Notes under the pieces: generated by a model | What the model was told of the DNA's origin: nothing | Database searches by the model: none | The model's input: the letters and a program-made list of their open reading frames with translations, nothing else | Shown: piece by piece, positions 40,538 through 63,931 of the stretch | How positions within the stretch are numbered: the first letter of the stretch is position 1 | Layout of the letters: every line of letters begins with the position of its first letter | Program-made: the position numbers and the translations under genes | NCBI GenBank assembly: GCA_963727485.1 | Contig: CAVSGM010000002.1 | Span: forward strand, 1,632,001-1,696,000 | DNA from: an uncultured delta proteobacterium | GTDB taxonomy: Bacteria > Myxococcota > Myxococcia > SLRQ01 | Direction: 5' to 3' | DNA length: 64,000 nt

Positions 40538-40904
40538 CTCCGTCTCCTCTTGCTCGGCGGCGTGGCGCAGTCAGCTCGGGGCGCGTCTGGCGCCATCCGT
40601 GCAGGCCGCGATCGCCGGGCTCCTCTTGGGTGTGTCTCCGGGTAATCCCGACACGGCCTCAAGGGCAGCACCCGGGGGGGGCGCCACTCGAGAGCGTAGG
40701 GACTCTCCCTGGGTATCCTGACTGGGCGGCGGTCGCAACTGCTCATCAGAATCGTTCTGGATCCCTGGCGGCAGGCGTGGGGGCGGTCGTCGTTGGGGGC
40801 CCTGGCCTTGTGCCCCGCGGCGCCGGTGAGTACCCCGGGGAAGCCGGCGCGCTGACGGCCGCGCCACCGCGCGAGCGCCGCGCCGGCGGAAAGGCGCACC
40901 CGCG

Positions 40905-41461
40905 ATGCGCCACCCACTCGCGCGTCTCGCCATGGCCTGCGCCCTCGCCGGCCTCCTCGTCCGCACCGCCTACCTCGGGGCCCTGGAGGCCGAGGACTAC
41001 GCGGCGCTCCCGGCGCTGGTCGACGGTGACCGGGGCATCCGGGTCTTCGAGTCCGGGGCCATCCTCTGGTACCTCGCCGAGCGCGAGGGCAGGCTCTTGC
41101 CCGAGGGCGGCCAGGACCGGGCGCTCACCTCGAGCTGGCTCCACTTCCAGATGGCCAACGTCGGCCCGATGCTGGGGCAGGCGTACCACTTCCGGAATCT
41201 CGAGGAGAAGGTGCCCTACGGCGAGAAGCGCTACGGCGACGAGGCGAGGCGGGTCCTGGGGGTCCTCGACGACCAACTCGCCGAGGCCGAGTGGCTCGCC
41301 GGCGACGAGTACACCATCGCCGACATCGCGACGTTTCCCTGGGTGCGCCGGCTCGGGCCCTTCGGGATTGCCGACGGCGAGCTCCCCCACCTCGAGGCCT
41401 GGGTGGCGAAATCGACGACCGGCCCGCGGTCGAGCGGGCCTACGCGCTGGAGTTCGGGTAG
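40905..41461 (+). pseudogene. Chimeric GST copy (signal peptide + HTH fragment + GST lacking its N-terminus)
   Basis: 5' matches 43451, middle matches ~37505-37558, rest matches 37863-38317; frameshift near 41410. Confidence 0.75.
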
Positions 41462-43311: not shown

Positions 43312-43450
43312 AGTCTGGGCTTGGCCCGGTAGCGCAGGCCTGCTCCCGGATGCCTTGTGCCCCGCGCCGCCGGTGATTACCCCGGGGATGCCGGCGCGCT
43401 GACGGGCGCGCACCCGCGCGATCGCCACGCCGGCGGAAAGGAGCACCCCG

Positions 43451-43969
43451 ATGCGTCACCCACTCGCGCGTCTGCTCATGGCCGGCGCCCTCGCCGGCCT
43501 CCTCGTCCCCGCCTCCCTGGCCCTGGCGAAGGGCGGGCCCAAGCCGGTCACCCGCAAGGCCCAGGCCGGGCCCTACCAGGTCACCTTGAAGGTGTTGCCC
43601 GCCGAGGCCTTCGAGGGCCCCCACGCCGAGATGGCCTGGGACGGCGGCGCCAAGGCCATGACCCTCACCAGCGCCGCCAGGCCCAACCGCCACCTGGTGG
43701 TCTTCGTGACCCGGGCCGGCAAGCCGGTGACCGACGGCAAGGTGCGCATCCGCTACCGGATGACGGGGATGCGCCAGTCCAGGTGGATGACGCTCCCGGT
43801 GGCGAAGATGCACGTGGCCGGCAAGAGCGCGGCCACCACCCACTACGGGAACAACGTCCACCTCCGGCACGGGTGGTACCAGGCGGTGGTCACCGTGAAC
43901 GGGCATAGGACCCAGGTCATGCGCTTCGCGGTCTCGGCGCCGGCCCCCGGCGCCGCCTCCCAGGGCTAG
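43451..43969 (+). CDS. Secreted His/Met-containing protein (YtkA/FixH-like Ig fold suspected)
   Basis: Signal peptide; HLVVFV..GKPVTD, MHVAG...HYGNNV.L..G.Y. Confidence 0.55.
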   Translation: MRHPLARLLMAGALAGLLVPASLALAKGGPKPVTRKAQAGPYQVTLKVLPAEAFEGPHAEMAWDGGAKAMTLTSAARPNRHLVVFVTRAGKPVTDGKVRIRYRMTGMRQSRWMTLPVAKMHVAGKSAATTHYGNNVHLRHGWYQAVVTVNGHRTQVMRFAVSAPAPGAASQG

Positions 43970-46911: not shown

Positions 46912-46943
46912 TGTCCCGAGCTGACACAGGTCTGCGCGATGGT
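46912..46943 (+). promoter_or_regulatory. Putative WYL-responsive promoter, copy 1 (upstream of the WYL gene)
   Basis: TGTC-ccgagct-GACA-N11-GATGGT. Confidence 0.55.
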
Positions 46944-47059
46944 TTCCGGCGCTCGGGATCCCCCCGCTGGGACCCGGGTGTTCGACAGCGAACAAGTCCC
47001 TAGGGAGCGCTTGCCAGTCGCCGGTGGGCGCGGTAGGCGAGGGTGGGGGTCAAGGACAC

Positions 47060-48106
47060 GTGAGAGGCGCGCAGGCAGCTCGGATCATCCGCTTGATGCT
47101 CCTCTTGGGAGCGCGGCGGACGGGCCTGACCATCGCGGAGATGCAGGAGGCGCTGAACGTCTCCCATCGCACGGTGTACCGGGACCTGGAGGTCCTCGGC
47201 GAGCTCGGGGTGCCGCTGACCAACGAGAAGGACGGCCGCAACACGGTCTACCAGCTCCTCGAGGGCGACCGCTGGCAGCTCGGGGTGCCGCTGGGGCTCG
47301 CGGAGATCGTGGCGCTGCACCTGGGGGTCGACCTCCTGCGGGTGCAGGGCGGGGCGGCGTGGTCGGAGGCGGCGGTGGCGGCGCTGGAGAAGCTCGACGC
47401 GGCGGTGCCCGGGAAGCTTTTGGCGCGGCTCGAGGAGGCGCTGGGCGGGGTGAGCGTGTCGACCCGGGGCCGGCGGCCGTATGAGGCGCGGCAGGAGATC
47501 CTGGCGACGCTGACCCGGGCGGTGCAGGAGGGGCGGCCGCTGGACATCGCGTACCTGAAGCCCGGGGATGGGTCGCGGCCCACACGCCGGCACCTGCATC
47601 CCCTGGCGGTGCGCCTGGAGCACGGGGGTGCGTACCTGGTGGCCCTCGACGTCGAGCTCGGCGAGCTGCGGACCTTCCTCGCCGACCGGGTGCAGATGGC
47701 GACGGTGGGCGAGGGGCGCTTCGAGCGGCCGCCGGGCTTCGCGGTGGACGACTACTTCGCCCAGGCGTTCCAGGTGCACCTCGGCGGGCCGCTGGTGAAG
47801 CTGCGCGCCGAGTTCGCGCCGCGGGTGGCGCACCTGGTGACCGAGCGGCGCTGGCACCCCTCGCAGCGGGCGCGGCACCTGGAGGACGGCGGGGTGTCGC
47901 TGGCGATGCAGGTGCGCGACACGCCGGAGCTGCGGGCGTGGCTGCTGGGGTTCGGGGGCGACGTGGTGGTCACGGCGCCCAAGGCGCTGGCCCGGGCGAT
48001 GGCCGAGGAGGCCGGGCGCATGGCGGCCGGGTATGCCGAGGCGCGGGGGCGCGAGAAGCGGGGCGGGCAGGTGGCGGCGCGGAGGCGGGGGCGGTCCGAT
48101 GATTGA
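47060..48106 (+). CDS. HTH-WYL-WCX transcriptional regulator (PafB/PafC/DriD-like)
   Basis: VSHRTVYRDL HTH; HPL....GGAYLVA.D..RTFLADRV; WHPSQ; WLLGFG. Confidence 0.9.
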   Translation: MRGAQAARIIRLMLLLGARRTGLTIAEMQEALNVSHRTVYRDLEVLGELGVPLTNEKDGRNTVYQLLEGDRWQLGVPLGLAEIVALHLGVDLLRVQGGAAWSEAAVAALEKLDAAVPGKLLARLEEALGGVSVSTRGRRPYEARQEILATLTRAVQEGRPLDIAYLKPGDGSRPTRRHLHPLAVRLEHGGAYLVALDVELGELRTFLADRVQMATVGEGRFERPPGFAVDDYFAQAFQVHLGGPLVKLRAEFAPRVAHLVTERRWHPSQRARHLEDGGVSLAMQVRDTPELRAWLLGFGGDVVVTAPKALARAMAEEAGRMAAGYAEARGREKRGGQVAARRRGRSDD

Positions 48107-48160
48107 TCGTGTTGGCCGGGGTGCAAATCGTTCGTGCGGCCCAGATACAGGAGGACGTCA

Positions 48161-48347
48161 GTGGCCAAAGAACTCGAAAGCTTGACCGCCAAGTTCAGCT
48201 CCGTGACCGTCAAGGCGCTGTTTCCCTACCAGGCGGAGATGGCTACCGCGGATGACCTGCCGAAGCTGCTCGAGGTCCCGACCGGCGCGGGCAAGACGGC
48301 GGCCGCACCTGCTGGTGTTGCGGCAGGGGCGGGGGCGCGTCCGATGA
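48161..48347 (+). pseudogene. cas3: 5' remnant of a different cas3 helicase
   Basis: AGGAGG RBS; FPYQ (Q motif); LLEVPTGAGKTAAA (Walker A); homology then stops. Confidence 0.6.
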
Positions 48348-48412
48348 GACGTGAGCTCATTGTAGAGCTTGGCGAGCTCGGAGCCGAGCGCCGATCCAGG
48401 AGGAGATGACAC

Positions 48413-51176
48413 ATGAACGGGGTCCCTGCAGGAGCGAGGGCAGCGAAGGATTGCGAGACGCTCGTCGTGTCTGACGGCGAGGCCCAACGACTGTTGGCCG
48501 ACGCTATGGGGCTGGCAGACGGAGAATCCCCGTTTCCCTGGCAACTCCGCCTGCTCCGCCAACTTCGTCAGGGCAAGATACCTCGGTCGTTGGCGATTCC
48601 CACCGGGCTAGGGAAGACGGCGACGATGGCCATTTGGCTCCTTGCCAGAGGCCTTTGTGCCTCGGTCCCGCGGCGGCTAGTCTACATCGTTGATTGCCGT
48701 GCGGTCGTGGATCAAGCGACCCGCGTGGCGGAGCAACTGAAGACCTGGGTGGCCGAGAACGTTCGAGTCGCCGCGGGGCTTGGGCTCGACGGGACGGATC
48801 TGCCCGTCTCTACCCTGCGTGGCAAATTGGTGGACAACCGCGAGTGGCTTGAGGATCCCCCCTGTGCCAAGCAATCATCGTAGGGACGGTGGACATGATC
48901 GGCTCGCGGCTCCTGTTCGAGGGCTACCGTCGCGGTCACGCAAGATCCGGCCCTACTTGGCAGGACTCCTGGGGACAGGACAGCTTGTTCGTGTTGGACG
49001 AGGCGCACCTGTTCCGCCCTTCGAGCGCCTGCTTGAACGGATTGCCGCTGAAGGGCTCTACGACCTCTGGCCCTATCCCAAGATGCCGGCCTCGTGGCTC
49101 CCACCACCCCCGCGGCTCCTGTCTCTCTCGGCCACGGGAAGGTCGCACGGTCGGAGATCCGTTCGACCTGGACGACGAGGTTCGCACATCCCGTGGTTAA
49201 GCGGCGCATGGTCTTCACCGTCAAGCGGCTTCACGGTTGAGGACATCGGCCCGGATGGAGATCTCGCGGAACTCGCCGCGGAGCGCGCGTGGGAGTTCAC
49301 CGACGGGGGCGCGGCCGCTACGATGCCTCGTATATCTCAACAGCCGCGACGACGCCGAGAGGGCCCGCGATCACCTCCTGCAGCTGGCTGGCCTCCGGAA
49401 GCAGAGGAAGGGACAAGCGGCAGCGGCTGACGTGGAGTTGATGGTGGGGGCTCGCAGAGTGTTCGAGCGTACGGGGGCAGCCGACGCCCTGGAAAGGCTC
49501 GGGTATCTGGGAAGCGAAAAGGCGCCAGGAACGCGTCCGGCCTTTCTGTTCTCGACGTCGGCGGGCGAGGTCGGTGTGGACCTGGATGCGGACCACATGG
49601 TCTGCGATCTGGTCCCCTGGGAGAGAATGGTACAGCGACTGGGCCGCGTGAACCGGCGGGGCGCCAAGCAGGCACGGGTCGTCGTGCTTCGGGCGCCGCC
49701 AGCTAAGGATGAACCGCCAGAGATCGAGACACGACGAGACCGTGTTGTCGCGCTGATTGGCTCCCTCCCGGCCAACGAGGATGGATCTCGCGACGTGAGC
49801 CCGGGCGCACTCGACTCGCTCCAGCGCGCAGCGCGAGCAGATCCTGCCATTGCAGACACCATGCGGGAGGCGTCAACGCCCGATCCGCTCTACCCGCCGC
49901 TAGAGCGACCGACCGTCGAGGCCTGGTCGATGACGTCCTTGCGGCACCACCCGGGCAGACCGTCCATTGCCCCGTGGCTCCGCGGCTGGGGCAGAGACAA
50001 CCCGCAGACGGCGGTGACCTGGCGACGGCGGTTCCCGTGGAAGCCCAGTGACGCCGCGCCCGACCGGAGCGTCATCGAACAGTATCTGGAGGCAGCACCT
50101 CCACACGCCAGCGAGGTCCTGGAAACGGATACCTTCCGGGTCATCGCTTGGCTCACCAAACGCGCGCAAGCGCTGCTCAAACACGTCAGCGGGGAGCCCG
50201 GGGCAGAGGTGCTCGGTCGTCACTCGGTCGTCGCGGTCACACGCTCACGCGGCGTCAATGGCATCCGCGCCTGGTCGCTGGACACTCTTGCGGCCTCTGG
50301 AGCGAAGGGCGAGCTCCAGAACGTCTTGCCTGGAGCCGACCTGGTGTTGCACGCCGACATGGCCGGCCTCGGGTTCGGCCTGCTGGATCCCAGGATCAGG
50401 AGGCACCGGTCACGCTTGACGGGGAGCCGGGCAGTTGGATCGAGGTTCCCTTTCGCATCAGAGAAACCGACATGCCGGAGCCAACATCGGATCCGGGATG
50501 GTACGAGAGACTCCGCTTTCCAGTGCTGCGTAGCCCAGACAACGAGGAGGCTACCCGTTGGCTGGTTGTGGAGAAGCTCCGCGCCGACTCGACAACCGAG
50601 GAGGACCGGTCAGCGGGGCGTCCGCAACTGCTGGAGGAACATCACAGTTGGACCGCCGAGCGCGCTCACGCGCTAGCGCGGCGGCTCGAGCTCTCCGAAG
50701 CGGCATCGCGAGTGCTGAGAATCGCAGGTCGTCTACACGACGAGGGGAAGAAGTCGCATCGTTGGCAAGGTGCTTTTCGTGCACCGTCAGCGCCGCCGGG
50801 CCCCTATGCCAAGACGCGTGGTCCGGTAAGTGTTCATCTGCTCGATGGGTACCGACACGAGTTCGGTTCACTCCCATACGCCGAGCGTGACGCCGAACTC
50901 CAAGACCTGCCCGAAGACCAGCGGGACCTGGTCCTTCACCTCATTGCGAGCCACCACGGCTTCGCCCGTCCAGTGATCTCCACCTCAGGGTGCGAGGACA
51001 TCCCCCCGTCCAGGCTCGAGATGCGTGCGGGTGAGGTCGCAGAGCGCTTCTGGGTGCTCCAGGAGCGATGGGGACCTTGGGGGCTCGCTTGGTGGGAGTC
51101 TCTGCTGAGAGCCGCCGACCAGCAGGCCTCGCGAGACAACGACGGGAGACCGGATGAGCGTAGGAAGGAGCCATAG
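48413..51176 (+). CDS. cas3: Type I-G (I-U) Cas3 helicase with C-terminal HD nuclease, multiple frameshifts
   Basis: PFPWQ, IPTGLGKT, PRRLVYIVD, DMIGSRLLF, DEAH, STSAGEVGVDLD, QRLGRVNRRG, LHDEGK, RHEFGS, ASHHG, RAAD. Confidence 0.9.
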
Positions 51177-52079
51177 ATGGCGGTCGCATCCATTCCAGTC
51201 GATCTTTTGAACCCCGGTCAGGTGTTCGGCTGCATTGGCCTCCTGGAATTGGCCGAGCTCTTGATCGGAGGAAGCAGCGGCGCTTTCGATTGGAGCCATC
51301 CGGAAGACACACGCTTCCGGCTGAGCGTCGGCGGCAATGAGGATCCCATCGCAGCCGGTCTGAAGTTCCTGGCGGAGGCAGAGGTTCACGCCATTCGGCC
51401 GACGGTTTCGGAGCTGGACACATCGAAGTGGAACGTGCCCTGCAGGGCGATTGCGGCGGGGGAGCCGTTCCCGATTCCGCCGCCGTCAAGTCCGGCGACG
51501 CTTCCCGCGGTACTGACCGCCCGGGGTCATTCACTGGCGGTGTCGTCCTGGGGCGAGGGCAATCTGCCCCAGGCCGTGACCTCCCGGCGGGATAACGTCA
51601 AGTTCTGGGCCGGGAGCGGCGGTTACCCGGGTGTTGCCCTTCAGGACGCACTTGAGCTGGTGCGCGGCCAGATCGCCGAGGCGGGCGCCAACCCCTTCTC
51701 GGTGTCGGCTCCGCAGACCAGCAGCTTCCGCTTTGACTGGAGGCGCGACTACATCCCAATTGACATCGGATTCTCGCTCAACGCGCACGAGACGATTCAG
51801 CCGCAAGGCTATCCTCTCGTCGAGATCCTTGCTGCCATTGGGCTGGCGCACGCGCGGCCGCAAAGGCGCAGCAAGCTGGAATACAGATACGGCGTGCTCT
51901 CGCTGCCTCCAGATGGGCCAGCGCCCGACGGCGATCTCCTGGCTCCGCCCTTTCTTCGAGCTGGTCTAGGCGGTGCGCCGCTCCCCTTTCCATCCCGCAT
52001 CTTCACGATGAACCTCGGGCTGGCCCGCAAAGGAAGGACAGGCCCGGTGCATCACCACCGTTTCCAGGAGAATGCCTGA
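51177..52079 (+). CDS. cas8: Type I-G/I-U large subunit (short Cas8u/Cas8c-like)
   Basis: IPVDLLNPGQVF.C.GLLE, KFWAG, FRFDWR...ID.GFS, VEILAAIGL; lies between cas3 and cas7. Confidence 0.75.
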   Translation: MAVASIPVDLLNPGQVFGCIGLLELAELLIGGSSGAFDWSHPEDTRFRLSVGGNEDPIAAGLKFLAEAEVHAIRPTVSELDTSKWNVPCRAIAAGEPFPIPPPSSPATLPAVLTARGHSLAVSSWGEGNLPQAVTSRRDNVKFWAGSGGYPGVALQDALELVRGQIAEAGANPFSVSAPQTSSFRFDWRRDYIPIDIGFSLNAHETIQPQGYPLVEILAAIGLAHARPQRRSKLEYRYGVLSLPPDGPAPDGDLLAPPFLRAGLGGAPLPFPSRIFTMNLGLARKGRTGPVHHHRFQENA

Positions 52080-53155
52080 TGACTGCCGTGCCACTGGACA
52101 ACGCTGTGATCGATGGATGGGCGACCGAGGCCAACGGGCCTGTTGCGCTTCACTACCGCCAGCACCTGCTCCCGATCGAGGGCCGCGGAGCAGTCTTCTT
52201 TCCACCCACCTTCGCGGGTGGCGGCTACAACATCGACGACCTTCCCGATGGGACCCGGGTCGTCCTCGTAGACACCGTAGGGTCGCAGGCCAACCGGATG
52301 GAGCCCCTCTTCAGAGAAGACGAACGCCTTCGCTCCCTGGTGCCCCAAATCGAGATCACGTATGGCGACGCGAAACAGGGTACCGACGGCAGCACCTCGC
52401 TCCTCGAAGCGGGGCATCGGTTGGGTGATGCGCTGGTGCGCTGCACCGAGCTTCGGGAGGATGCCCGGTCCGCCTTTCAGGCGCTTCTCAGGAGGGATGA
52501 TGCGACGCCACTCGCGAAGTTGGCGCCAACGTCACTCGTCTTCGGCGCTTGGGATTCGCGCGACACGATGGCGAAGGTGCCCAGGATCGTCCAAAGCGTC
52601 ATTCGGGCCTGGGACGTCTTAGACCAGCTGACGCGCTCGGCCCAGTACTCACCGGCACTGGACTATGCGGCCCTCGACGTCTTCACAGAAGCGGAGAAGG
52701 AGAAGGCGGAGACAAAGGCGAACAGTGACTTGGCCAAGCGTGGGTTTGTGCACGTCCCCGCAGTCGGGAGCCACGGTGGCGTCGTCGCCTATGGGCCGAT
52801 CCAGCGTGACGTGACGGTCAACCTCATCGCCCTTCGACGGCTTGGTGGAGTCAACCGCGACGCGTTGCGACGGTACGTGCTAGGACTTTCCTTGGTAGCA
52901 GCGACCGCGCCACAAGACCCATTTCTGCGCCAGGGCTGCATGTTGGTACCCGACGTCGAACGGCCCGGATGTTGGGAGGGGGTCAACCGGGACGGAACCC
53001 GGTCGGAGGTGGCACTTACCTTTGATGGCGCCCTCGACTACGCCGGCCGGGTGGCCAAGGCGTTTGGCGTCGGCGAGAGCAGGACGACCCGCTTCGACAA
53101 GAGCCTGGCGAAGGCGGATGCGGCTGAAGGCAAGAAGAAGGGCAAGTCCAAGTGA
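52079..53155 (+). CDS. csb1: Type I-G Cas7 (Csb1)
   Basis: FFPPTF, VDTVGSQANRME, GHRLGDA, PTSLVFGAWDSR, LRQGC.L. Confidence 0.9.
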   Translation: MTAVPLDNAVIDGWATEANGPVALHYRQHLLPIEGRGAVFFPPTFAGGGYNIDDLPDGTRVVLVDTVGSQANRMEPLFREDERLRSLVPQIEITYGDAKQGTDGSTSLLEAGHRLGDALVRCTELREDARSAFQALLRRDDATPLAKLAPTSLVFGAWDSRDTMAKVPRIVQSVIRAWDVLDQLTRSAQYSPALDYAALDVFTEAEKEKAETKANSDLAKRGFVHVPAVGSHGGVVAYGPIQRDVTVNLIALRRLGGVNRDALRRYVLGLSLVAATAPQDPFLRQGCMLVPDVERPGCWEGVNRDGTRSEVALTFDGALDYAGRVAKAFGVGESRTTRFDKSLAKADAAEGKKKGKSK

Positions 53156-55361
53156 GCTCGCGAGGCGCTTCCGAGCTGCTGCTGACGGTCCGTTTCCTCG
53201 ATGGCCGCTACCACGGTCAGCCGGAGTGGCCGCCGGCTCCCGCTCGACTGTTCCAGGCACTTGTGGCGGGTAGCGCGCGAGGTGGGCGACTGGAGCCGGA
53301 GGATGCAGCCGCCCTGGAATGGCTCGAGTGCTTGCCGCCGCCAGTCGTCGGGGCGCCGACCGCGTGGCCTGGCCGCTCGTTGAAGCTCTGGGTCCCGAAT
53401 AACGACCTTGACAGCAAGGGAGGGGATCCGGCGGACGTGTCGGACATTCGCACGGGCAAAACGGTGAGGCCGATGCTCTTCGATGCGTCGGTCCCGTTGC
53501 TGTACGCTTGGCGCTACGCGACCACCGATGAAGACGCGGCGGCGCGCGTCGCTAGCCTAGCGAGGGAACTTCATCAGCTCGGACGCGGTGTCGACAGCGC
53601 GTGGGCGGTCGCGCGGCGAATGCCACCTGACGATCTTGCGGCGTTGCTCGAGGATTACGAGGGACAGGTCGATCCGAGTTCTCCGGGTGCGGTCTCGAAA
53701 GGCAATGTACTAGCTGTCCTCGCCCCGGCTCGCTGGCGAGTGTGGACGCACGGTATTCCGCCTTCCTCGAACGCTTTCATTTCGAGGGTGATGGACAAGG
53801 CACGACCCAGGTATTTCGGCAACCTCCGAAGGCCATGTTCTCCTTGGTGGCGTACGATGCTCCACCAGCTCGGCTCTTGTTCGACCTGCGTAGGTCACCG
53901 GACACGACAGGCTACGCCGTCACCCCCTTGACGCGCGTGTCCAGGCTTGCCGAAGCGGTACGGGATGCCGTGGCTGCACGACTCAAGGAGGCCCTGCCTG
54001 ACGAGGAGACGGACATCGCGACGAGCCCTGGTCGGGCGCCGCATCGAGGGGCTTCCCCGGGTACCGTCCGAAGCACGGGTTCGCATCCTTCCACTTCCTC
54101 GAATCGGTCATGCCCATGCGGATCGCAGTGTTCGTCGAGTGCTCGTTGAGATACCGGCAGCGAGCCCAATCCGGCGGGACGACCTCGAACTGGGCATTTC
54201 AGGAGCCGAATTGCACGCGCCGGACGGATCGGATGCCATCCTGCTGCGCGCGGCGGACTGGAGCATGGCGCACCACTATGGCGTGGAGCCCCGTCCTGGA
54301 AGCGGCTCGCGTCTATGGCGGTCGATTTCTGCCGTTGCATTGCCCCCCGGGCGATGGCGGAGCGATCTGCGTGGTTGGACGCAGGACTCGGACCCGGCCG
54401 CACGGCGTGGCGAAGAGGAGGCTCGCGCCCGTCGTGCCGTCTCAGAGAATCTCAAGGCACGCGGGCGTCCGAGCGCGGCCAGCAAGGAATCCAGGTGCAA
54501 CGCGAGCCCTTTGAACCAGGAAAAGGGCGCCCGCGCTGAAGCCTTCGCGCTCGGCACGCGTTTCGCGAAGGAGCGGATGTGGCACGTCGAGGATCGCCTT
54601 CCACGACCCCGTAGCCGGACCACTGGTTATCGGAGACGGGCGTTCTCTCGGGCTCGGGCTCTTGAGGCCGTGTGATGATGGTGCCAGGGGCGTTGCTGTT
54701 TCGCGTACGCCATGGGCTGGCAGAGGGCGCCCCCGCCCTCGAAATAGCCCAGGCGTTGCGGCGTGCAGTGATGTCACGGTTCCAGCGAACAATCGGTGAG
54801 GCGCGGGACCTTCCGGCCTTCGTTAGCGGTCATGATGCGTCCGGCAGGCCGGCGGAGGACGTCCCCCATCTTTCCTTCGTCTTCGAGCCTCGAGGACGTC
54901 GCCTGATGGTCGTGGCACCACACATGGTCGAAAGACGCGGGCCCCATGGGGGTGAGCAGGGCAAACTGCGCACGCTCCGACGAGCGCTGGACGACTTCAC
55001 GCAACTGCTCGCGGGAAGGTATGGGAACCTTCAGCTCGACGAGGAAGGATACACCCTAGAAGGAGACCCACTTTTCGCACCAGCTCGCCGGTGGGCCTCG
55101 GCTACGCCCTATGTTGTCAACCGACACCGTGCTGCGGTGACAGCTAAGGCAGCGCTGGCCGCCGACCTTGAATTTGCCTGCCGTGATGCGGGTCTTCCGA
55201 AGCCGCACGTGGAGGTACTGGAAACCTGGGGGATGCCGGGCGTTGGTCTGGCCGGACGGGCGGAGCTTCTATTCAAGGTGGCCGTCTCCGGTCCCCTCCT
55301 TCTGGGCCGGTTGCGGTACAAGGGCGGGGGCCTCTTCGAGCATGCCGAGGCGTCAGCCTGA
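53152..55361 (+). CDS. csb2: Type I-G Csb2 (Cas5/Cas6 fusion), long form, frameshifted
   Basis: GRYHG..EWPPAPARLFQALVA, VPNND, LGRG.D; G-rich loops GPLVIGDGR.LGLG (~54620) and GPLLLGRLRYKGGGLF (~55300). Confidence 0.85.
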
Positions 55362-55510
55362 TCCCGGTGGGCCGGCCCTCTAAGGAGGCGCTCGCTCCGG
55401 GGAGGCGTACCAGGCCGTGATGTTGTCTGCAGCGAGGAGCTCTGGCTTGGCAATTGCCCTCGGTTACGGTGCGCACCTCAGTCTCGCTCTCTTCGTCCTA
55501 GACGACACTG

Positions 55511-55542
55511 TGTCCTGATCCGGCACGGCGGCAATTCAGGAT
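55511..55542 (+). promoter_or_regulatory. Putative WYL-responsive promoter, copy 2 (upstream of cas4/1)
   Basis: TGTC-ctgatcc-GGCA-N11-CAGGAT. Confidence 0.6.
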
Positions 55543-55609
55543 CCTCCACGGGCCCAACCGACCGGCACGGGTAAGCCCGATGCGCCGACTCGGCGCCGAG
55601 GAGGATCCC

Positions 55610-57262
55610 ATGGCAGAGACGGAAGCGCCGGCCCTGGTGCCGGTTCGCATGCTCAACGAGTTCGCCTACTGCCCCCGGCTCTTCTACCTGGAGTGGGTGC
55701 AGGGGGAGTGGGCGGACAACCTGTTCACCGAGCACGGGCGGCTGACGCACCGGCGCGCCGACAAGCCGGGTGGCGAGGTGCCGGCGCCCGAGTCGGACAC
55801 GCCCTTCGTGGCGCGCTCGGTGTCGGCGGCGGCGCCGCGGATCGGGCTCACCACCAAGGTCGACGTGCTCGAGGGCGACGGCGGCGAGGTGGTGCCGGTG
55901 GAGTACAAGCGCGGCCGGCCGGCGCCGGTGCCCGAGCAGGTCTACGAGCCGGAGCGGGTGCAGGTGTGCGCCCAGGGGCTGGTGCTCCGGGAGAACGGGT
56001 ACCCGGTCACCCACGGCGAGATCTACTTCGCCCAGACCCGGGAGCGGGTCGAGGTGCCCTTCGACGAGGCGCTGGTGGCGCGGACCCTGGAGCTGCTCGA
56101 GGCGCTGCGACGGTGCGCCGATGAGGGAGAGATCCCGGGGCCCCTCGACGACAGCCCCAAGTGCATCGGGTGCTCGCTCAATGCGATCTGCCTTCCTGAC
56201 GAGGTGCACCTGCTCCAGGGCGGGGCCCCGGCGCAGCCCCGGCAGCTCACGCCGGCGCGCGACGACGCGCTGCCCCTCTACGTGCAGGAGCAGGGGGCGC
56301 GCGTCGGGATCGACGGAGACTGCCTGGCGGTACGGGATCGGGCCAAGCACAAGATCGCCGAGGCGCGGCTGCTGGAGACGTCCCAGGTCTGCGTCTACGG
56401 CAACGTGCAGGTGTCGACCCAGGCGCTGCGGAGGTTGGCGTCGGAGGGGATGCCGGTGTCGCTGTTCAGCTATGGCGGGTGGTTCTACGGCCGCCTGGTG
56501 GGCAACGGGCACAAGAACATCGAGGTCCGCCGGGCGCAGTTCCGGGCGGCGGACAGCACCGCGTGGTGCCTGCGCTTCGCGCGGCGCATCGTGCAGGCGA
56601 AGATCGCCAACAGCCGGACGATGATCCGTCGCAACCACCCGGAGCCACCGCGGCGGGTGCTCGACGGCCTGAAGGCCGCGCGTGACCTGGTGGACGGGGC
56701 GGAGAGCCTCGCCTCGCTCCTCGGGGTGGAGGGGACGGCGGCGCGGCTCTACTTCGGGGCGCTGCCGGGGGCGTTCAAGGGGGCGGGGCTGGCCTTCGAC
56801 TTCGAGGGGCGCAACCGGCGGCCGCCGGCGGACCCGGTGAACGCGCTCTTGTCCTTCGTCTACAGCCTGCTGGCCAAGGACTGGACGGTGACGCTGGCGG
56901 CGGTGGGGCTCGACCCGTACCTGGGCTTCTACCACCAGCCGCGCTACGGCCGGCCGGCGCTGGCGCTCGACCTGATGGAGGAGTTCCGCCCGATTGTCGC
57001 CGACTCCACGGTCCTGCAGGTGGTGAACAACGGAGTGGTCCGGGAGAAGGACTTCATCCGCAACGGGCTGGGCGTGGGGCTCAAGCCCGGGGCCCGCAAG
57101 CGGGTCATCGAGGCGTACGAGCGGCGGATGTCGCAGCTCGTGACCCACCCGGTGTTCGGCTACCGGGTGAGCTACCGGCGCATCCTCGAGGTGCAGGCGC
57201 GGTTGCTGTCGCGGCACCTGCTCGGCGAGATCCCCGAGTACCCACAGTTCGTGACGAGGTGA
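55610..57262 (+). CDS. cas1: Cas4-Cas1 fusion
   Basis: NEFAYCPR, VEYKRG, KCIGCSLNAICLP (Cas4); GVEGTAA, RNRRPP.DPVNALLS, GFYH, ALDLMEEFRP (Cas1). Confidence 0.97.
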   Translation: MAETEAPALVPVRMLNEFAYCPRLFYLEWVQGEWADNLFTEHGRLTHRRADKPGGEVPAPESDTPFVARSVSAAAPRIGLTTKVDVLEGDGGEVVPVEYKRGRPAPVPEQVYEPERVQVCAQGLVLRENGYPVTHGEIYFAQTRERVEVPFDEALVARTLELLEALRRCADEGEIPGPLDDSPKCIGCSLNAICLPDEVHLLQGGAPAQPRQLTPARDDALPLYVQEQGARVGIDGDCLAVRDRAKHKIAEARLLETSQVCVYGNVQVSTQALRRLASEGMPVSLFSYGGWFYGRLVGNGHKNIEVRRAQFRAADSTAWCLRFARRIVQAKIANSRTMIRRNHPEPPRRVLDGLKAARDLVDGAESLASLLGVEGTAARLYFGALPGAFKGAGLAFDFEGRNRRPPADPVNALLSFVYSLLAKDWTVTLAAVGLDPYLGFYHQPRYGRPALALDLMEEFRPIVADSTVLQVVNNGVVREKDFIRNGLGVGLKPGARKRVIEAYERRMSQLVTHPVFGYRVSYRRILEVQARLLSRHLLGEIPEYPQFVTR

Positions 57263-57265
57263 GCG

Positions 57266-57556
57266 GTGCGTTCGGTCTACCTCGTGACCTACGACATCTC
57301 CGACCCCAAGCGGCTGCGGCGGGTGTTCAAGGTGATGCACGGCTTCGGACAGCACATCCAGCTCTCGGTGTTCCGGTGCACCTTGGGCGATCGGCAGCGG
57401 GTGCAGCTCGAGGCGGCCTTACTGGGCGAGATGAACCTCGAGGAGGACCAGGCGCTCATCGTGGATCTCGGGCCCGAGGCGGGGCGGGGCGCCAAGGCAA
57501 TCCACTCGGTGGGGCAGCACTACGAGCCCCCTGGTCGGGGACCACTCGTGCTATGA
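57266..57556 (+). CDS. cas2: Cas2
   Basis: YLVTYDISDPKRLRRV, IQLSVF. Confidence 0.95.
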   Translation: MRSVYLVTYDISDPKRLRRVFKVMHGFGQHIQLSVFRCTLGDRQRVQLEAALLGEMNLEEDQALIVDLGPEAGRGAKAIHSVGQHYEPPGRGPLVL

Positions 57557-57783
57557 ATGCTTGGGTCTGTGGCAGGGGAATAGCGCGTCAGGCGGCGCGA
57601 GCGGTCCGGTGGTGGCAGTTTGCCGGGGACCGCTCGCGACCGCCAAGGTGCCGGACTTTGGGCTCCTCCGGCGCTGGTGCCCGGTGCCGGCCCGTCTCGC
57701 GAGCGCTCGGTACCGCTCGCCGCCGGCACCGCTCGAAAGGGCTGTCGTATCATTGCGGGATCGCAGGTAGAATCGCGAGAGCT
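57557..57783 (+). promoter_or_regulatory. CRISPR leader
   Basis: Between cas2 and the first repeat; inverted repeat gcgagcggtcc/ggaccgctcgc (57597-57637); repeated ACCGCTCG; TAGAAT just before repeat 1. Confidence 0.8.
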
Positions 57784-60256
57784 GTCTCCCCGGCCATCAG
57801 GCTGGGGCTCCGTTGAAGCCGACGACGCCGGGGACGCCCGCGGACGGCGAGCGGCAGGTCTCCCCGGCCATCAGGCTGGGGCTCCGTTGAAGCCAGGCTG
57901 CCGGCCGGTGGCCTGCCGGCGCCGCGTAGCGGTCTCCCCGGCCATCAGGCTGGGGCTCCGTTGAAGCGCGCCGAGCTCGCGCGGCATGACGATCCGGTCG
58001 ACGGCGCGTCTCCCCGGCCATCAGGCTGGGGCTCCGTTGAAGCCTCGTCGACGCGGCGTCGAGCGCCGGCGTCGAGGCCGGGTCTCCCCGGCCATCAGGC
58101 TGGGGCTCCGTTGAAGCCGCGCACTCCACGGCTGCGGCTCGACGGCGCCCGACTGTCTCCCCGGCCATCAGGCTGGGGCTCCGTTGAAGCACGGTGACCT
58201 GGCGCCGGTACGCTCGGCCTGAGCGCGCGTCTCCCCGGCCATCAGGCTGGGGCTCCGTTGAAGCCGCACCGCGTCGACGGCGCCGACGCTCGGCGCTCTG
58301 CGTGTCTCCCCGGCCATCAGGCTGGGGCTCCGTTGAAGCCGACCGTACCGCCGGCGCGACCGTGCCGACGTCGCGGCGTCTCCCCGGCCATCAGGCTGGG
58401 GCTCCGTTGAAGCGTCCCAGTCGGCAGCCGCCTGCCACGGTGCATGGCTCGTCTCCCCGGCCATCAGGCTGGGGCTCCGTTGAAGCGCCGTGACCGCGGG
58501 GCCGTCGAGCTCGCCGATGCCGCGTCTCCCCGGCCATCAGGCTGGGGCTCCGTTGAAGCCTGAGCTGCGGCCCGACGCATCGAGGCCGCCGGCGCCGTGT
58601 CTCCCCGGCCATCAGGCTGGGGCTCCGTTGAAGCACGGGCTCCGGCGCGTCCGCGGTCGCTCGATGCCGCGCGTCTCCCCGGCCATCAGGCTGGGGCTCC
58701 GTTGAAGCACTCGGAGCGTCCGAGCGGCCGCTCGCGTCCACCGGCGGCGTCTCCCCGGCCATCAGGCTGGGGCTCCGTTGAAGCGGCCGACTCGAGCGAG
58801 GCGCACGGTCGATCCGGCGCGCGTCTCCCCGGCCATCAGGCTGGGGCTCCGTTGAAGCAGTCAGCCCGGACGCGGCACGCCGCGACCGCGGCTCGGTCTC
58901 CCCGGCCATCAGGCTGGGGCTCCGTTGAAGCACGCTAGCGGCCCGGCGTCGACGCCGCGGCGTCGGCGCGTCTCCCCGGCCATCAGGCTGGGGCTCCGTT
59001 GAAGCGCGCCGTGGCCTGCCGCGGACGGCCGTCGCCGACGGCCGCGTCTCCCCGGCCATCAGGCTGGGGCTCCGTTGAAGCGCAGCCGGCCGGTCGACGC
59101 CTGGACGCCGGTGCTCTCGTCTCCCCGGCCATCAGGCTGGGGCTCCGTTGAAGCCGACCGTCGACGGCCCGCTGCACGGCCCGCGAGCGCCTGCGTCTCC
59201 CCGGCCATCAGGCTGGGGCTCCGTTGAAGCGTGACGCTGTCAGCTCGGCCCGGCTGTGCGCGCCGCAGGTCTCCCCGGCCATCAGGCTGGGGCTCCGTTG
59301 AAGCACGGCGTGCGCGCGACGGTCGCCGACGCCGTGCCGCCGCGTCTCCCCGGCCATCAGGCTGGGGCTCCGTTGAAGCGCGCCAGACGCCCGGCTGGCG
59401 TGCGGCCGGCGCGGCGCGGTCTCCCCGGCCATCAGGCTGGGGCTCCGTTGAAGCCCGCCAGCCGCTGCGCTCGCAGCGCGGTCGACCGGTCTCCCCGGCC
59501 ATCAGGCTGGGGCTCCGTTGAAGCCCGCGAGCGCGTGCGGCTCGCCGCGAGGTCGACCGGTCTCCCCGGCCATCAGGCTGGGGCTCCGTTGAAGCAGCCG
59601 ACCGGCGCGTCGGCCGCGGCCATCGACGCGTCGTCTCCCCGGCCATCAGGCTGGGGCTCCGTTGAAGCGACCGCGACGCAGCCGCGAGCGCGTGCCTCGG
59701 CGTCGGCGTCTCCCCGGCCATCAGGCTGGGGCTCCGTTGAAGCGCGGCGACGCTCGGCGCGGTCGCCGGCGCGGCGGACGTCTCCCCGGCCATCAGGCTG
59801 GGGCTCCGTTGAAGCGCGCCGCAGCTGCGCCGCTCGGCTCGCGGCGCCGGCAGCGTCTCCCCGGCCATCAGGCTGGGGCTCCGTTGAAGCGCGCCCGGCG
59901 GCGCGCGAGCCGACGACGTCACGCGCGGTCTCCCCGGCCATCAGGCTGGGGCTCCGTTGAAGCGGCCCGCGCGGCGACCTCGGCGGTCCGGGCCGCGTCG
60001 CGTCTCCCCGGCCATCAGGCTGGGGCTCCGTTGAAGCGCGCCAGGGCCGACGCCCCATCCACGCATCGGCGCGTCTCCCCGGCCATCAGGCTGGGGCTCC
60101 GTTGAAGCTCGTTCACCGCACTTCACACCCTCGATGGAGATCTCGGGTCTCCCCGGCCATCAGGCTGGGGCTCCGTTGAAGCGACCTCGCCGAAGGCGGT
60201 CCTCCTCGGCGAACCCGGGTGTCTCCCCGGCCATCAGGCTGGGGCTCCGTTGAAGC
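57784..60256 (+). CRISPR. CRISPR array: 34 identical 36-bp repeats GTCTCCCCGGCCATCAGGCTGGGGCTCCGTTGAAGC, 33 spacers of 34-40 nt
   Basis: Counted by eye; hairpin CCCCGGCC/GGCTGGGG; TTGAAGC end typical of type I-G. Confidence 0.98.
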
Positions 60257-60305
60257 GGGTTGAGGCCGACCGCGAGCGCCGGAAGCATCCCAGCTTCCTG
60301 TCCAG

Positions 60306-60337
60306 TGTCCCCATCCGGCACGCCCACCGCGCATCCT
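60306..60337 (+). promoter_or_regulatory. Putative WYL-responsive leaderless promoter, copy 3
   Basis: TGTC-cccatcc-GGCA-N11-CATCCT-6nt-ATG. Confidence 0.6.
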
Positions 60338-60343
60338 GATCCC

Positions 60344-61084
60344 ATGGAAACCCGCAACGCGCCCATCCGCCCCGTCCTCTTCGGCCTCGTCGGTCCCCGG
60401 GATCACGGTCGCGTCCTCGATCTCCTCCACGCCGTCGCCGCCCCCGACCACATCGTGGACCAGGCTCGGCGCGAGCTCCCTGGTCGCTCGATCGTCGCCT
60501 GGGCACCAAGGTCCTCGGGTCACCTCCTCGGCGTCGCTCTCGTGGCCCGACGCGGGGACACCGCCACTCTCCATTACCTGGCGACCCTAGCGGAAGGTCC
60601 CGCTCCACTCGACCTGGCCCGGGCCGTGCCGCTCTGGAACCAGCCCGTCGATGGCATCCACACCCTGATCGCCACGCCAGCCATCTCCTCGGCCGACCTC
60701 GGCGCTCGGTGGCGACCTGACCCGCGAGGCCACGTCTACCGGTTCGAGCCGGCCGACCGGGCCGTGCCCTGCGCCATCTGCGGCGTACCGCGCATTCGAA
60801 GCGGCGACGCTCGACGGCACCCAGGCCTCGTCTGCGACGACTGCGACGCCCGCGCCGTCGACGCCTGGGGCCAGGCACCGGGCGTCCTTCCCGACGGCGC
60901 CCGCATCCTCGTCCTCATCGATGGCGTTCGCTGCATCCGCCATCGCCGCTTCGGCTACCGGGTCACAAGCCTCTGCGCGCCACCGCCGAAGCCGGCTGCG
61001 TCCACCCGAGAGGATCCACCCCCTCGCCCCAGAACCGATCCCGCGGCGACGCCTCCACCAGCCGCGCGTACCCCGTGGCCGTGA
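60344..61084 (+). CDS. Hypothetical protein: GNAT-like N-terminal region plus C-terminal Zn-finger domain
   Basis: CAICG...HPGLVCDDCDARAVD...IDGVRC; GHLLGVALV..GDTATLHYLA. Confidence 0.65.
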   Translation: METRNAPIRPVLFGLVGPRDHGRVLDLLHAVAAPDHIVDQARRELPGRSIVAWAPRSSGHLLGVALVARRGDTATLHYLATLAEGPAPLDLARAVPLWNQPVDGIHTLIATPAISSADLGARWRPDPRGHVYRFEPADRAVPCAICGVPRIRSGDARRHPGLVCDDCDARAVDAWGQAPGVLPDGARILVLIDGVRCIRHRRFGYRVTSLCAPPPKPAASTREDPPPRPRTDPAATPPPAARTPWP

Positions 61085-61220
61085 GCCGCGTCGCCAGCAC
61101 CGGGTCGCTGAACTTCACCGCGAGCACCGCCCGCATCACGTCCACCCGGGTCACGTCCCAGTACCCCGGGCGCCTCCGTCGACCCCGTCGACCCCTGTTT
61201 GCAACGCTCGGAAGCTGAGC
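60963..61220 (-). pseudogene. C-terminal fragment of a NADAR (YbiA-like) protein
   Basis: WDVTRVDVMRAVLAVKFSDP.L..RL.ATG..RLVEASPRDRFWG; N-terminal half absent. Confidence 0.7.
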
Positions 61221-61290
61221 CACCCCCCGGCCCCCACACGGGAGCCAGGAGGGTGGACTCAGTCGCATCACGGCGTCGGTCGACCCGGCA

Positions 61291-61749
61291 CTACAGCGCG
61301 GCGAGCAGCCTGCCGATGGCAAGAAGGGCTGCCGCGCAGCCCACCAGGAGGATCAGCCCCGACACCACGCCAATCGGGTTGGGGCCTCTCGGGCCGCCCG
61401 GACCCCCGGCGGAGACGCCGGCCATGGTGCGGTAGGTCCTTGGCGCGGCGTAGGTGACGAGCCACCAGACCAGGGCCACCAGGACACCTGTCGCCTCCGG
61501 TCCAATGGTGGAGGGGTGTGGCGCGGCGCCGGAACGCAGCTGGAACACGGCGCAGCCCGCCTCCCAGAACAGCAGGGCCAGCCGGCTCCCCTGCGAGGTG
61601 CGCCAGTAGTCCTGGAGGATCGCCGTGATCACCTCGCCGAGGATGGTCACCGTGGCGGCGGACGCGCGGAAGCGCTCGAGGACGATGCGGCTGACCGACC
61701 TCCTGGTCCTGGCCGGAAGCGGGACGCCGCTCTGGGCGATGGCCGCCAT
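61291..61749 (-). CDS. Hypothetical membrane protein
   Basis: About 4 hydrophobic segments; TGATG coupling with the upstream gene. Confidence 0.55.
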   Translation of the reverse strand: MAAIAQSGVPLPARTRRSVSRIVLERFRASAATVTILGEVITAILQDYWRTSQGSRLALLFWEAGCAVFQLRSGAAPHPSTIGPEATGVLVALVWWLVTYAAPRTYRTMAGVSAGGPGGPRGPNPIGVVSGLILLVGCAAALLAIGRLLAAL

Positions 61750-62603
61750 CAGTTGGTCAGGCGCGTCTCCTCCCACCGCGCCGACATCACCTCGTCCAAT
61801 CCGTTCAGCTCGCCGAGTGCGCGCTGGAGCAGCGCCTCCGGGCTCTGGTCCACCGCGATGGGGCGCACGGAACCGTCCCGGCTCACCGCCAGCCGCAGGT
61901 CCGCCCCGAGGATCACCTCGACGTCCCAGTAGCGGTCCCGCGCGACCTGACGGACCACGTCGACCAGGGCCTCGAGGCGCGGCGCCGTGAGCCAATCACC
62001 GGCGTCCGGGGTCGGGTCGGGCACCCGGGCGAGGGTCGAGGTGGTCGAGGCCAGCGGGTCCACGTCACCCGGCACGAAGGCGACCTCGACGAAGAAGCCC
62101 TGCGACCCGTCGTACACCGCCAGCAGCGGGAGCTCGTCGTCGAGCTCGCGCTCGAGAGAGCGGAAGACCCTGGGCCCCACGTGGTCCTCGAAGGGGCCCA
62201 CCTCGCTGCGCGTGCCCGTGAGCCGGTCGAGCATCGCCAGCTGGCCCTCGGCGTCCACGATCCACACCCAGCGACGATCGAGACGTGCGGCCAGGGACTC
62301 GACGTCGACCGACTCCAGGGGGACCACCACCGCCGCCTCGGCGCGCGACCAGTCCTGGAACACCACGTCCAAGCCCACCACCGGCAGGGGCACGGCGTCC
62401 CAGATCGCCTCGGGGAGCGGCGGCGGATCGACGTACCATCGCCACCGATCCTCGCGGCCGGGAAGGGCGGTGAGCTCGCCGTAGCCAACGATGGCGAACG
62501 GGACACCGCGGCGGACGTCATCGAGCAGCCGGGGCGAGATGAGAAAGGAGGCACCCCGGGCGTGGGCGGGTGCCACCGGACGAATGTCGAAGGGCAGTAT
62601 CAT
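61749..62603 (-). CDS. Hypothetical protein
   Basis: 284-aa ORF with protein-like composition; no recognised motif. Confidence 0.6.
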   Translation of the reverse strand: MILPFDIRPVAPAHARGASFLISPRLLDDVRRGVPFAIVGYGELTALPGREDRWRWYVDPPPLPEAIWDAVPLPVVGLDVVFQDWSRAEAAVVVPLESVDVESLAARLDRRWVWIVDAEGQLAMLDRLTGTRSEVGPFEDHVGPRVFRSLERELDDELPLLAVYDGSQGFFVEVAFVPGDVDPLASTTSTLARVPDPTPDAGDWLTAPRLEALVDVVRQVARDRYWDVEVILGADLRLAVSRDGSVRPIAVDQSPEALLQRALGELNGLDEVMSARWEETRLTN

Positions 62604-62821
62604 CAGATGCGACTCCAGAGTTCAGAGCGTGAGAGGGAAACATCCCGTTCACCGGACACACGACCCTCCGTGAGGTCGAGTGCCCGCCGCGTACCGCCCG
62701 GGGGTTACGCGGCCGTGCTCTGGTCTGGGCGCATCGTGGGGACCCAAGGGGTCCCCGGTGGGGGAAGGGCTCGGCGGCCACCCTGGCGGGCGGGAATGAG
62801 CTCTTCGGGGGCAGCGGGGAT

Positions 62822-62856
62822 GTCCGACCGGCGCGTCATTGGTGCTCCATTGAACC
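62822..62856 (+). CRISPR. Solitary divergent CRISPR repeat-like unit
   Basis: gtccgaccggcgcgtcattggtgctccattgaacc; 14/17 match to the 3' end of the array repeat, GTC start, stem partly conserved. Confidence 0.55.
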
Positions 62857-63084
62857 TGGCTGGACCACCGTGCCTCGTCGGCCGGTTGGTGGGGTCACTC
62901 CCAGGTGAGTACCTCGACCCCGTCTCAATGGGACTCGCCTTCGTCCCGCGAGTGTCAGTGAATGTACGACATTTCCCTTCATGTGTCAAGATGAAAACCC
63001 GCCTCCGATACCCGGGGTGAACGCGGGTTTGGCGACGATGATAGGCTCGCCGGTGGCGATGTCGACCCCGGCGCCGCGCCACCC

Positions 63085-63116
63085 TGTCCCGATCTGTCAC
63101 ACCCGCGATCCATGCT
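63085..63116 (+). promoter_or_regulatory. Putative WYL-responsive leaderless promoter, copy 4
   Basis: TGTC-ccgatct-GTCA-N11-CATGCT-7nt-GTG. Confidence 0.6.
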
Positions 63117-63123
63117 CGCGGTC

Positions 63124-63390
63124 GTGGCAGGCACGACCCATCCCCGGCGGCATCAGGGAGACCAGCCGGCCCGCTGCGCCATCTGCCGCCGCCGGGTCTC
63201 CCGGCGGTTCGCCCGCCAGTACCCGGGCCTCCTCTGCGCCGCCTGCGACGCCCGCGCCGTCGACCGCCGCCACCGGACGCCGGTGGTCCTCGACGACCAC
63301 GAGACCCAGACCGTCTTCGTCGACGGCCTCCGCTGCGCCCGCTACCACCTCTTCGGCGGCTGGGTGACCCTGCGCACCCACCGGCGGTAA
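63124..63390 (+). CDS. Small Zn-finger protein (paralog of the 60344 C-terminal domain)
   Basis: CAIC...YPGLLCAACDARAVD...FVDGLRC...FGG. Confidence 0.7.
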   Translation: MAGTTHPRRHQGDQPARCAICRRRVSRRFARQYPGLLCAACDARAVDRRHRTPVVLDDHETQTVFVDGLRCARYHLFGGWVTLRTHRR

Positions 63391-63402: not shown

Positions 63403-63931
63403 ATGCCCCGCCCCCCGCGCCAGAGCTTCGTCGCCCTCGACTTCGAGACCGCCGACAACGGTCGCGACTCCGCCTGCGCCGTGGCCCTCGTCCGCGTCGA
63501 CGCCGGCCGCATCACCCGCCGCGCCGTGCGCCTCATCCGCCCCCCGCGCACCCGGTTCCTGTTCACCGGCATCCACGGCATCCGCTGGACCGACGTCGCC
63601 GCCGAGCCCGACTTCGCCGGCGTGTGGCCCGATCTCGCCCCGCTCCTCGAGGGCGCCGGCTTCCTCGCCGCCCACAACGCGCCCTTCGATTCGGAGCGTG
63701 CTGCGCACCTGCTGCGAGCGCGCCGGCCTCGCGCCCCCGGCGCTCCCCTTCGTGTGCACCGTCCAGCTCGCCCGGCGCACCTGGGACTTCCCCAACAACC
63801 GCCTCGACACCGTGGCCCGGTACCTGGACATCCCCCTCGTCCACCACGACCCGGCCTCCGACGCCGAGGCCTGCGCGCGCATCGTCCTCGCCGGCTGGGA
63901 GGCCGGCGCCCTGGGGCCGGCGGCACCTTGA
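63403..63931 (+). CDS. DEDDh 3'-5' exonuclease (DnaQ-like), frameshift near 63695
   Basis: ALDFETA, IHGI, AHNAPFD, CT, HHDPASDAEAC. Confidence 0.9.

Follow-up and report, generated by a model that had tools for sequence, protein, structure and literature searches.

A WYL-headed type I-G locus with four boxes

We analysed a 64,000-nt stretch of DNA from an uncultured delta proteobacterium of the Myxococcota (contig CAVSGM010000002.1; G000:C2:1632001-1696000, hereafter the window), in which a gene for a WYL-domain regulator heads a type I-G CRISPR-Cas locus. G000 is the source assembly (5.55 Mb, 73% GC), and G001 and so on denote genomes of relatives. The WYL gene is followed by the type I-G interference genes, cas4/1, cas2, a 34-repeat array and accessory open reading frames (ORFs). 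Four copies of a short sequence box lie in intergenic DNA at this locus, the first of them ahead of the WYL gene. The features of the locus are as follows:

46912-46926, plus strand: box 1, with 11 nt and the -10-like GATGGT (46938-46943); predicted to drive the WYL gene and, probably, the interference operon as well
47060..48106, plus strand: WYL regulator, 348 aa (Pfam; best PDB sequence and fold match DriD; structure model)
48161..48310, plus strand: short N-terminal remnant resembling the start of another helicase/Cas3 (FPYQ...PTGAGKT; label inferred from motifs)
48413..51176, plus strand: type I-G cas3g, broken into several frames in the assembly (PADLOC)
51177..55361, plus strand: cas8g, cas7g (csb1) and csb2/cas5-6g pieces (Pfam/PADLOC)
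55511..55542, plus strand: box 2, 11 nt and CAGGAT (55537-55542); predicted promoter of cas4/1-cas2
55610..57556, plus strand: cas4/1 fusion (Cas1g) and cas2 (Pfam, PADLOC)
57784..60256, plus strand: CRISPR array, 34 identical 36-nt repeats ending TTGAAGC, 33 spacers
60306..60337, plus strand: box 3, 11 nt and CATCCT (60332-60337); predicted leaderless promoter, hexamer 6 nt before the ATG at 60344
60344..61084, plus strand: 246-aa ORF with a CxxC...CxxC module, paralogous to 63124
63085..63116, plus strand: box 4, 11 nt and CATGCT (63111-63116); predicted leaderless promoter, hexamer 7 nt before the GTG at 63124
63124..63390, plus strand: 88-aa CxxC...CxxC protein of an unnamed family
63403..63931, plus strand: DnaQ/DEDDh-like exonuclease, frameshifted in the assembly (Pfam, PADLOC, NCBIfam)

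All four sites that an initial annotation of this DNA had placed in the window were present on the plus strand, each 11 nt before an NANNNT hexamer. Their consensus is TG(A/T)CC-N5-(T/C)G(A/G/T)CA-C-N10-NANNNT. The loose core of the proposed motif taken alone, TGTC-N7-GDCA, occurred at chance frequency, whereas the full box with its -10 was above chance. The loose form gave 7 matches in the window compared to 5.1 ± 2.6 in shuffled sequence (29 of 100 shuffles reached 7) and 335 in the whole genome; two of the window matches, at 1162 and 30036, had no -10. A matrix built from the four sites gave 10 genome matches at a score of at least 21, including the four training sites, compared to 0 in a simulated 5.5-Mb order-4 Markov genome. 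The box-only threshold gave 11 held-out matches, part of which are noise since the simulation also yielded 7 at that threshold. NANNNT lay exactly 11 nt after the box in 7 of these 11 (6 of 10 with one strain duplicate merged), against a background of 1.75%; every other spacing between 5 and 19 gave 0-3. Positions G2, C5, G12, C14 and A15 were invariant in 13 iterated sites. The four boxes are thus real, and not chance, in the full arrangement with the -10.

We found no -35 under the box, where CCCGAT-type hexamers lie, and no sigma-70 consensus promoter on the plus strand. The CANNNT hexamers that had been noted at GST and gpmA are also present, each preceded by a TTG(A/C)CC -35-like hexamer. 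Because no terminator-like site was found between the WYL gene and cas3, the interference genes are probably co-induced from the promoter of the WYL gene.

The locus carries cas3g, cas8g, cas7g/csb1, csb2, cas4/1, cas2 and a G-type repeat, which identify it as type I-G; the TTGAAGC ending is that of the myxobacterial G-type repeat (PMC11237760). An RBS-like (ribosome-binding-site-like) sequence precedes the remnant at 48161..48310, which had no Pfam match. The interference module (48107-55400) sits after this remnant of another helicase start and is lower in GC than its surroundings (64-67% at 51177..55361 compared to ~72% in the flanks). A WYL protein 99% identical to that of the window, P0001, has a different C-terminal tail. 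The low-GC module behind the helicase remnant and the tail of P0001 suggest cassette exchange behind the WYL gene. Elsewhere in the window, duplicated elements of 97 nt and 71 nt (87-91% alike) lie at 40805-40970 and 43352-43516, upstream of two ORFs with similar N-termini.

At the cas3 region, two low-depth short-read contigs differed from the window by indels alone, and sequenced DNA runs covered the locus only in fragments; no RNA run holding it was listed. Long-read errors may account for the frameshifts in cas3, csb2 and dnaQ. Frameshifts affect many genes of the variable regions in G000, which points to long-read indel errors, and contigs C6, C7, C8, C10, C12, C13 and C14 are strain haplotypes 78-99% identical to stretches of larger contigs. 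Spacers 1-29 have 82% GC, an excess of CG/GC and zero AA or TT dinucleotides in 1100 nt; the last two spacers look more ordinary. Most spacers are likely a consensus artefact over strain-variable spacers and unfit for target searches.

Box promoters across the genome and in relatives

The boxes had been read as a local WYL regulon. A box does precede the WYL gene and cas4/1-cas2, but the predicted regulon is genome-wide. Beyond the window we observed six confident promoters and one borderline promoter of the same geometry, for a total of 11 box promoters (copies on C6 and C7 are strain variants of C1 and were counted once):

C1:300866: 148-aa paralog with a winged helix-turn-helix and three-helix bundle but no WYL domain (wHTH-3HB); confident
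C11:161726: second full-length WYL gene (C11:160603-161688); confident
C11:239526: DEAD/UvrD/SNF2 helicase operon with DruE-, DpdE- and DrmMI-like PADLOC matches; confident
C2:598959: PD-lambda-1 homologue; confident
C1:627567: SbcD/Rad50-like pair; confident (NCBIfam matches below cut-off)
C1:643068: operon with an ADP-ribosylglycohydrolase, just after a pafBC-like pair; confident
C1:626306: divergent AAA ATPase; borderline (score 16.7 compared to a simulated maximum of 16.8)

All three RTVYRD-class genes of the genome are preceded by a box, and 4 of the 11 boxes cluster around the window WYL gene. On a strain-variant contig of 86-87% identity the SbcD box is retained, altered at position 3 and within the spacer. 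Predicted to be under box control are the operon of the regulator itself, together with the I-G interference genes, then cas4/1-cas2 and the two leaderless accessory units, and, elsewhere in the genome, the defence and repair operons. Three other candidates were set aside: a high-scoring site at 34451-34482 of the window (minus strand) lies within a plus-strand open frame with no gene behind it, C2:1094449 has a box without a -10 and was excluded from the count, and a site at uvrA entered the matrix during iteration and was then reassigned to the PafBC class described below.

Common control had been taken to make the accessory genes part of the defence system, but it is insufficient to count 60344 and 63124/63403 among the components of the CRISPR system; the zinc-module gene gave no more than marginal matches, in 5 of 400 other genomes. 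The 60344 ORF shares 45% identity and the CxxC module with 63124 and had no Pfam, PADLOC or NCBIfam match; its N-terminus is possibly degenerate GNAT-like, a weak lead from a protein-atlas match of 0.83. The 63124 protein matched unnamed atlas clusters at 0.93. We found no phage match for the zinc-module protein, and no Pfam domain in its two longer relatives. On the minus strand, 61291-63065 holds two unknown ORFs (61749-62603 and 61291-61749), and two sigma-70-like promoters (63065-63038 and 62989-62961) diverge from box 4.

The sites had also been compared with those of the WYL activator PafBC. The downstream half-site and spacer do coincide with the PafBC hexamer and spacer; the architecture as a whole, with two half-sites, is instead DriD-like. 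The mycobacterial PafBC consensus tGTCgg-N10-tANNNT (PMC8635444) aligns with box positions 11-16. PafBC differs from the window regulator in acting as a heterodimer on one -26 half-site with no upstream half, whereas the boxes have both. Our genome holds two PafB/PafC-like pairs, and the single window WYL gene falls outside the PafB and PafC groups in the tree.

A separate promoter class, TGTC(A/G)G-N10-TANNNT, gave 24 matches at spacer 10 compared to 1-11 at other spacers (C1:180826 at recA, C2:587614, C11:276879, C3:73555, C4:24495, C11:826123, C2:1697212 and others). The genes behind these promoters include uvrA and a Fic gene just right of the window, together with what we take, from sequence motifs, to be recA, imuA-like, radA, lhr and xerC-like genes and several RAYT-like transposase copies. 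We take this class to be, probably, the regulon of PafBC. All 11 of 11 box promoters have C16 and an upstream YGWCC half-site; among nine selected PafBC-type promoters (recA, imuA-like, uvrA, radA, lhr, xerC-like, fic and two RAYT), one had an upstream YGWC and eight had G16. Counts of the PafBC pattern in relatives were above the reversed control in G003 and G024 and barely so in G004, whereas G001 and G002 showed no such excess. Published work already mentions PafBC sites in M. xanthus (PMC9705874, PMC12288472).

These data bear on whether the four promoters belong to the core damage regulon of PafBC, their downstream half-site being read by PafB/PafC-like heterodimers through sigma adaptation. 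We regard this as unlikely: the genome does carry two such pairs, the PafBC consensus does align with box positions 11-16 and one box lies just after a pafBC-like pair, but the two promoter classes separate cleanly on the upstream half-site and position 16, and the box tracks the RTVYRD-class WYL across genomes. Cross-talk is possible.

The initial annotation had made its regulon depend on conservation in relatives with WYL-type I-G loci, and this was observed: the box sits before cas4/1 in WYL-bearing Myxococcota. Homologues of cas4/1 occurred in 43 of 400 Myxococcota genomes, and 41 loci were examined (G364 and G186 left out). A strict box with -10 lay within 300 nt upstream of cas4/1 at 7 of the 41, namely at 6 of 10 loci whose fetched flank includes a full WYL gene compared to 1 of 31 without, one fragment-only WYL match being placed in the latter group. 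Per genome, the cas4/1 box was present in 7 of 14 with this WYL class compared to 0 of 27 without (P = 1.5e-4, Fisher; overstated, as kin are not independent). G369 has a box with one mismatch at cas4/1, and at several loci there is another box ahead of the interference genes or of the WYL gene. Around 28 WYL genes of relatives, a box at spacer 11 was found in 14, compared to 0-2 at other spacers. The unpublished genome G081, counted among the 14 and the 28, has no box at its cas4/1.

The family relatives G002 and G003 have a WYL orthologue (44% and 49% identity) with a box adjoining each and no cas genes beside it. We found neither orthologue nor box in G001 (97% complete) and no orthologue in G004, whose three pattern matches all scored <13. 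Reversed-pattern controls gave 0-3 matches per genome in the family relatives, so position and score were used rather than raw counts. A strict 16-mer search of 60 relatives was uninformative, returning a single match in G002 and another in G022, both lacking a -10 at 11 nt, and two G002 sites (C338, C238) had no clear downstream gene. In the tree, the window WYL protein groups with its family orthologues, outside the clade (100/98) of the relatives' CRISPR-linked WYL proteins. This grouping suggests that the CRISPR cassette was plugged into a resident WYL regulator.

A metagenome scan with the WYL alignment found nothing. A scan with the alignment of the short paralog returned distant, mostly YafY-like genes, and among the best 80 of 565 loci the same geometry lay before 16 of these more distant YafY-like WYL genes. 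The motif class is common to distant WYL clades. In relatives, YafY-like WYL genes (L024-L036) carry a TG(A/T)CA-N5-TGTCA box directly at the gene start.

Could an alternative sigma factor use the box as its upstream element, or could the box belong to an unrelated regulator, with the WYL link incidental? The fixed spacing resembles a sigma promoter, and a CRISPR island of M. xanthus is known to be under extracytoplasmic function (ECF) sigma control. We consider this very improbable, given a palindromic two-half-site element that precedes all three RTVYRD-class genes and the 16 distant YafY-like WYL genes.

The WYL regulator and its likely mode of action

The protein encoded at 47060 has the domain order wHTH (HTH_11), a bundle of three helices, WYL and then WCX by Pfam and the structure model (model helices at 80-96, 99-115 and 118-129). 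Its recognition helix, VSHRTVYRDL, carries Arg37 and Arg41. DriD was its best PDB sequence match (E 5e-13, ~24% identity) and also led the fold search (E 4e-18), ahead of PafBC (9e-15) and CapW/BrxR (~8e-7). Three paralogs in the genome carry the same recognition helix, and the window protein is the likely box reader among them.

In DriD, Arg37 and Arg41 contact G2 and the C4:G pair, and Glu40 contacts C1 (PMC10853764). The conserved box positions (G2, C5, G12, C14 and A15) match the Arg37/Arg41 read-out; the Glu40 position is Tyr here, and box position 1 is mostly T. The DriD box lies across the -35 position and keeps a fixed distance to the -10; there is no -35, and the three-helix bundle recruits polymerase (PMC13004042). 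Two of the three DriD promoters printed there read as a 15-mer, 11 nt starting with C, and CANNNT; the spacing count and -10 assignment are ours, and the third promoter could not be placed. Because the geometry is the same, with the DriD box on the -35 and polymerase recruited by the bundle, we infer activation at the window boxes. The two systems share the wHTH-3HB-WYL-WCX order, Arg37/Arg41, a 15-bp box with conserved G2, C4, G12 and C14 that covers the -35 position and, in the two printed DriD promoters, is set 11 nt ahead of a CANNNT hexamer, and several target promoters. The window system differs in having T/A rather than C/G at the box ends, a GC-rich rather than AT-rich centre, a box before its own gene, mainly defence targets, and a short WYL-less paralog under the box. 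By domain order, Arg37/Arg41, box and fixed -10 distance, the protein has the sequence features of the DriD-like homodimeric activator class.

The targets resemble those of DdaA of the Moraxellaceae, which recognizes CGWCA-N5-TGWCG and activates CRISPR and restriction-modification genes; in Acinetobacter, 90% of the CRISPR systems carry its boxes (PMC12392091). Common to both are a near-identical motif class, CRISPR-Cas and other defence targets, promoters that travel with defence cargo, self-regulation (for DdaA, in basal lineages) and loss of the first WYL arginine. The Arg207 position, Leu in the window protein, is reported to be lost in DdaA as well, which remains damage-responsive (PMC12392091). 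The two motifs share G2, W3, C4, G12 and C14 and differ at positions 1, 5 and 15. DdaA has taken the place of LexA in controlling recA and uvrA, whereas in the window genome a LexA-type box and a PafBC-type promoter, but no two-half-site box, are found at recA; DdaA targets type I-F and the window locus is type I-G. On sequence grounds, the window regulator appears DriD-like in geometry and DdaA-like in targets.

We consider it probable that the boxes are sites of a homodimeric WYL activator of the DriD/DdaA type, most likely the 47060 protein, which would recruit the housekeeping polymerase to -35-less promoters upon sensing nucleic acid. Nucleic acid from damage or infection would be sensed by the activator, and its homodimer would take both half-sites, Arg37 and Arg41 reading G2 and the C4:G pair of each by analogy with DriD. 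The box would span about -38 to -24, as judged from DriD, and contacts of the three-helix bundle with polymerase would bring the housekeeping enzyme to promoters that have no -35. Sites 3 and 4 would yield leaderless transcripts. By analogy with DriD, the window protein may sense single-stranded DNA.

Several observations weigh against this assignment. The structure model has a predicted template-modelling score (pTM) of 0.39, and TM-scores to DriD are just ~0.41. The putative single-stranded DNA pocket is conserved in part: the equivalents of DriD Arg204 and Tyr192 are kept, but Leu replaces Arg207, His replaces Tyr240 and Pro replaces Arg288 (all read by eye from the alignment). DriD is reported not to activate its own gene (PMC13004042), and DdaA boxes lie ~50 bp upstream of the start site (PMC12392091). 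Among relatives, 7 of the 14 WYL-bearing cas4/1 genomes have no strict box at cas4/1. A further point concerns which protein reads the box. The paralog at C11:160603-161688 has an identical RTVYRDL helix, a box of its own and an apparently kept Arg207 equivalent (RLDRI), lost in the window protein, and it could be the activator, alone or jointly, with the window protein redundant or responding to another ligand. This is improbable in our view: the C11 paralog sits on a long, divergent branch with a weak WYL score (27.8 bits), whereas the window protein is a close orthologue (44-49%) of the WYL proteins in box-carrying family relatives and its gene lies amid the local cluster of boxes.

WYL repressors of defence loci are known, and BrxR/CapW resembles the window system in heading a defence locus and binding an inverted repeat (PMC9122601). 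A repressor of the BrxR/CapW/Sll7009 type would occlude the -35 region until induced, and the box does overlap the -35 position. BrxR boxes, however, lie downstream of the -10 (PMC9122601), there is neither a -35 under our boxes nor a plus-strand consensus promoter to occlude, the fold is far closer to DriD than to the distantly matching BrxR/CapW, and a fixed 11-nt spacing is an activator trait. We therefore consider repression quite improbable and retain activation by the 47060 protein as our preferred reading.

A sensor-less paralog and the wider WYL circuit

The short paralog under a box (148 aa, G000:C1:300358-300804) keeps the helix VSVRTVYRDL and stops at the point where a WYL domain would begin. 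Its counterpart in G003 (G003:C44:26762-27172; L040:16762-17172) lies directly after the full-length gene. In both G000 and G003 the gene has a true stop and a box in front; these are 2 of 401 genomes. Five database proteins of 133-146 aa join it in one clade with modest support (82/84), and they lie on short contigs, where truncation at the contig end is possible.

A predicted complex of the short paralog with the full-length protein scored 0.33 compared to 0.00 for the best control, with contact agreement of at least 63% and a partner pLDDT (predicted local distance difference test) of at least 64. Of 157 solved pairs 116 attained this mark, as did 2 of 215 mismatched ones; at or below 0.60 these numbered just 18 solved pairs and both mismatches. 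Likeness to the DriD homodimer may explain the predicted complex, whose support is weak. We prefer to view the short paralog as a putative feedback brake; a constitutive amplifier is the alternative. Tentatively, a box-driven wHTH-3HB anti-activator, competing for boxes or locking the full-length protein, might shape acquisition into a pulse, with the cas4/1 box serving as a portable promoter for the host's RTVYRD-class WYL sensor.

The survey of myxobacterial CRISPR systems noted these WYL proteins and, in its accessible part, assigned them no mode (PMC11237760). We found no direct precedent for a WYL protein controlling type I-G or cas1 promoters, and none for a box-driven WYL-less paralog, in literature whose coverage did not extend to subscription papers. 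Surprise is moderate because the principle is known from DdaA and DriD. WYL-activated CRISPR is known already from DdaA; the box-driven sensor-less paralog is the one part for which we found no precedent in that literature. Conservation of the cas4/1 box and the sensor-less paralog are the parts most worth attention.

A prediction from our analysis is that the WYL proteins found next to type I-G loci in myxobacteria act as activators, recognize a defined box and have promoters dedicated to spacer acquisition. One genome would then run two WYL circuits on one promoter geometry, with the half-site class for core repair and the two-half-site class for defence cargo. If the short paralog is a feedback inhibitor, it would address how self-inducing WYL activators get switched off.

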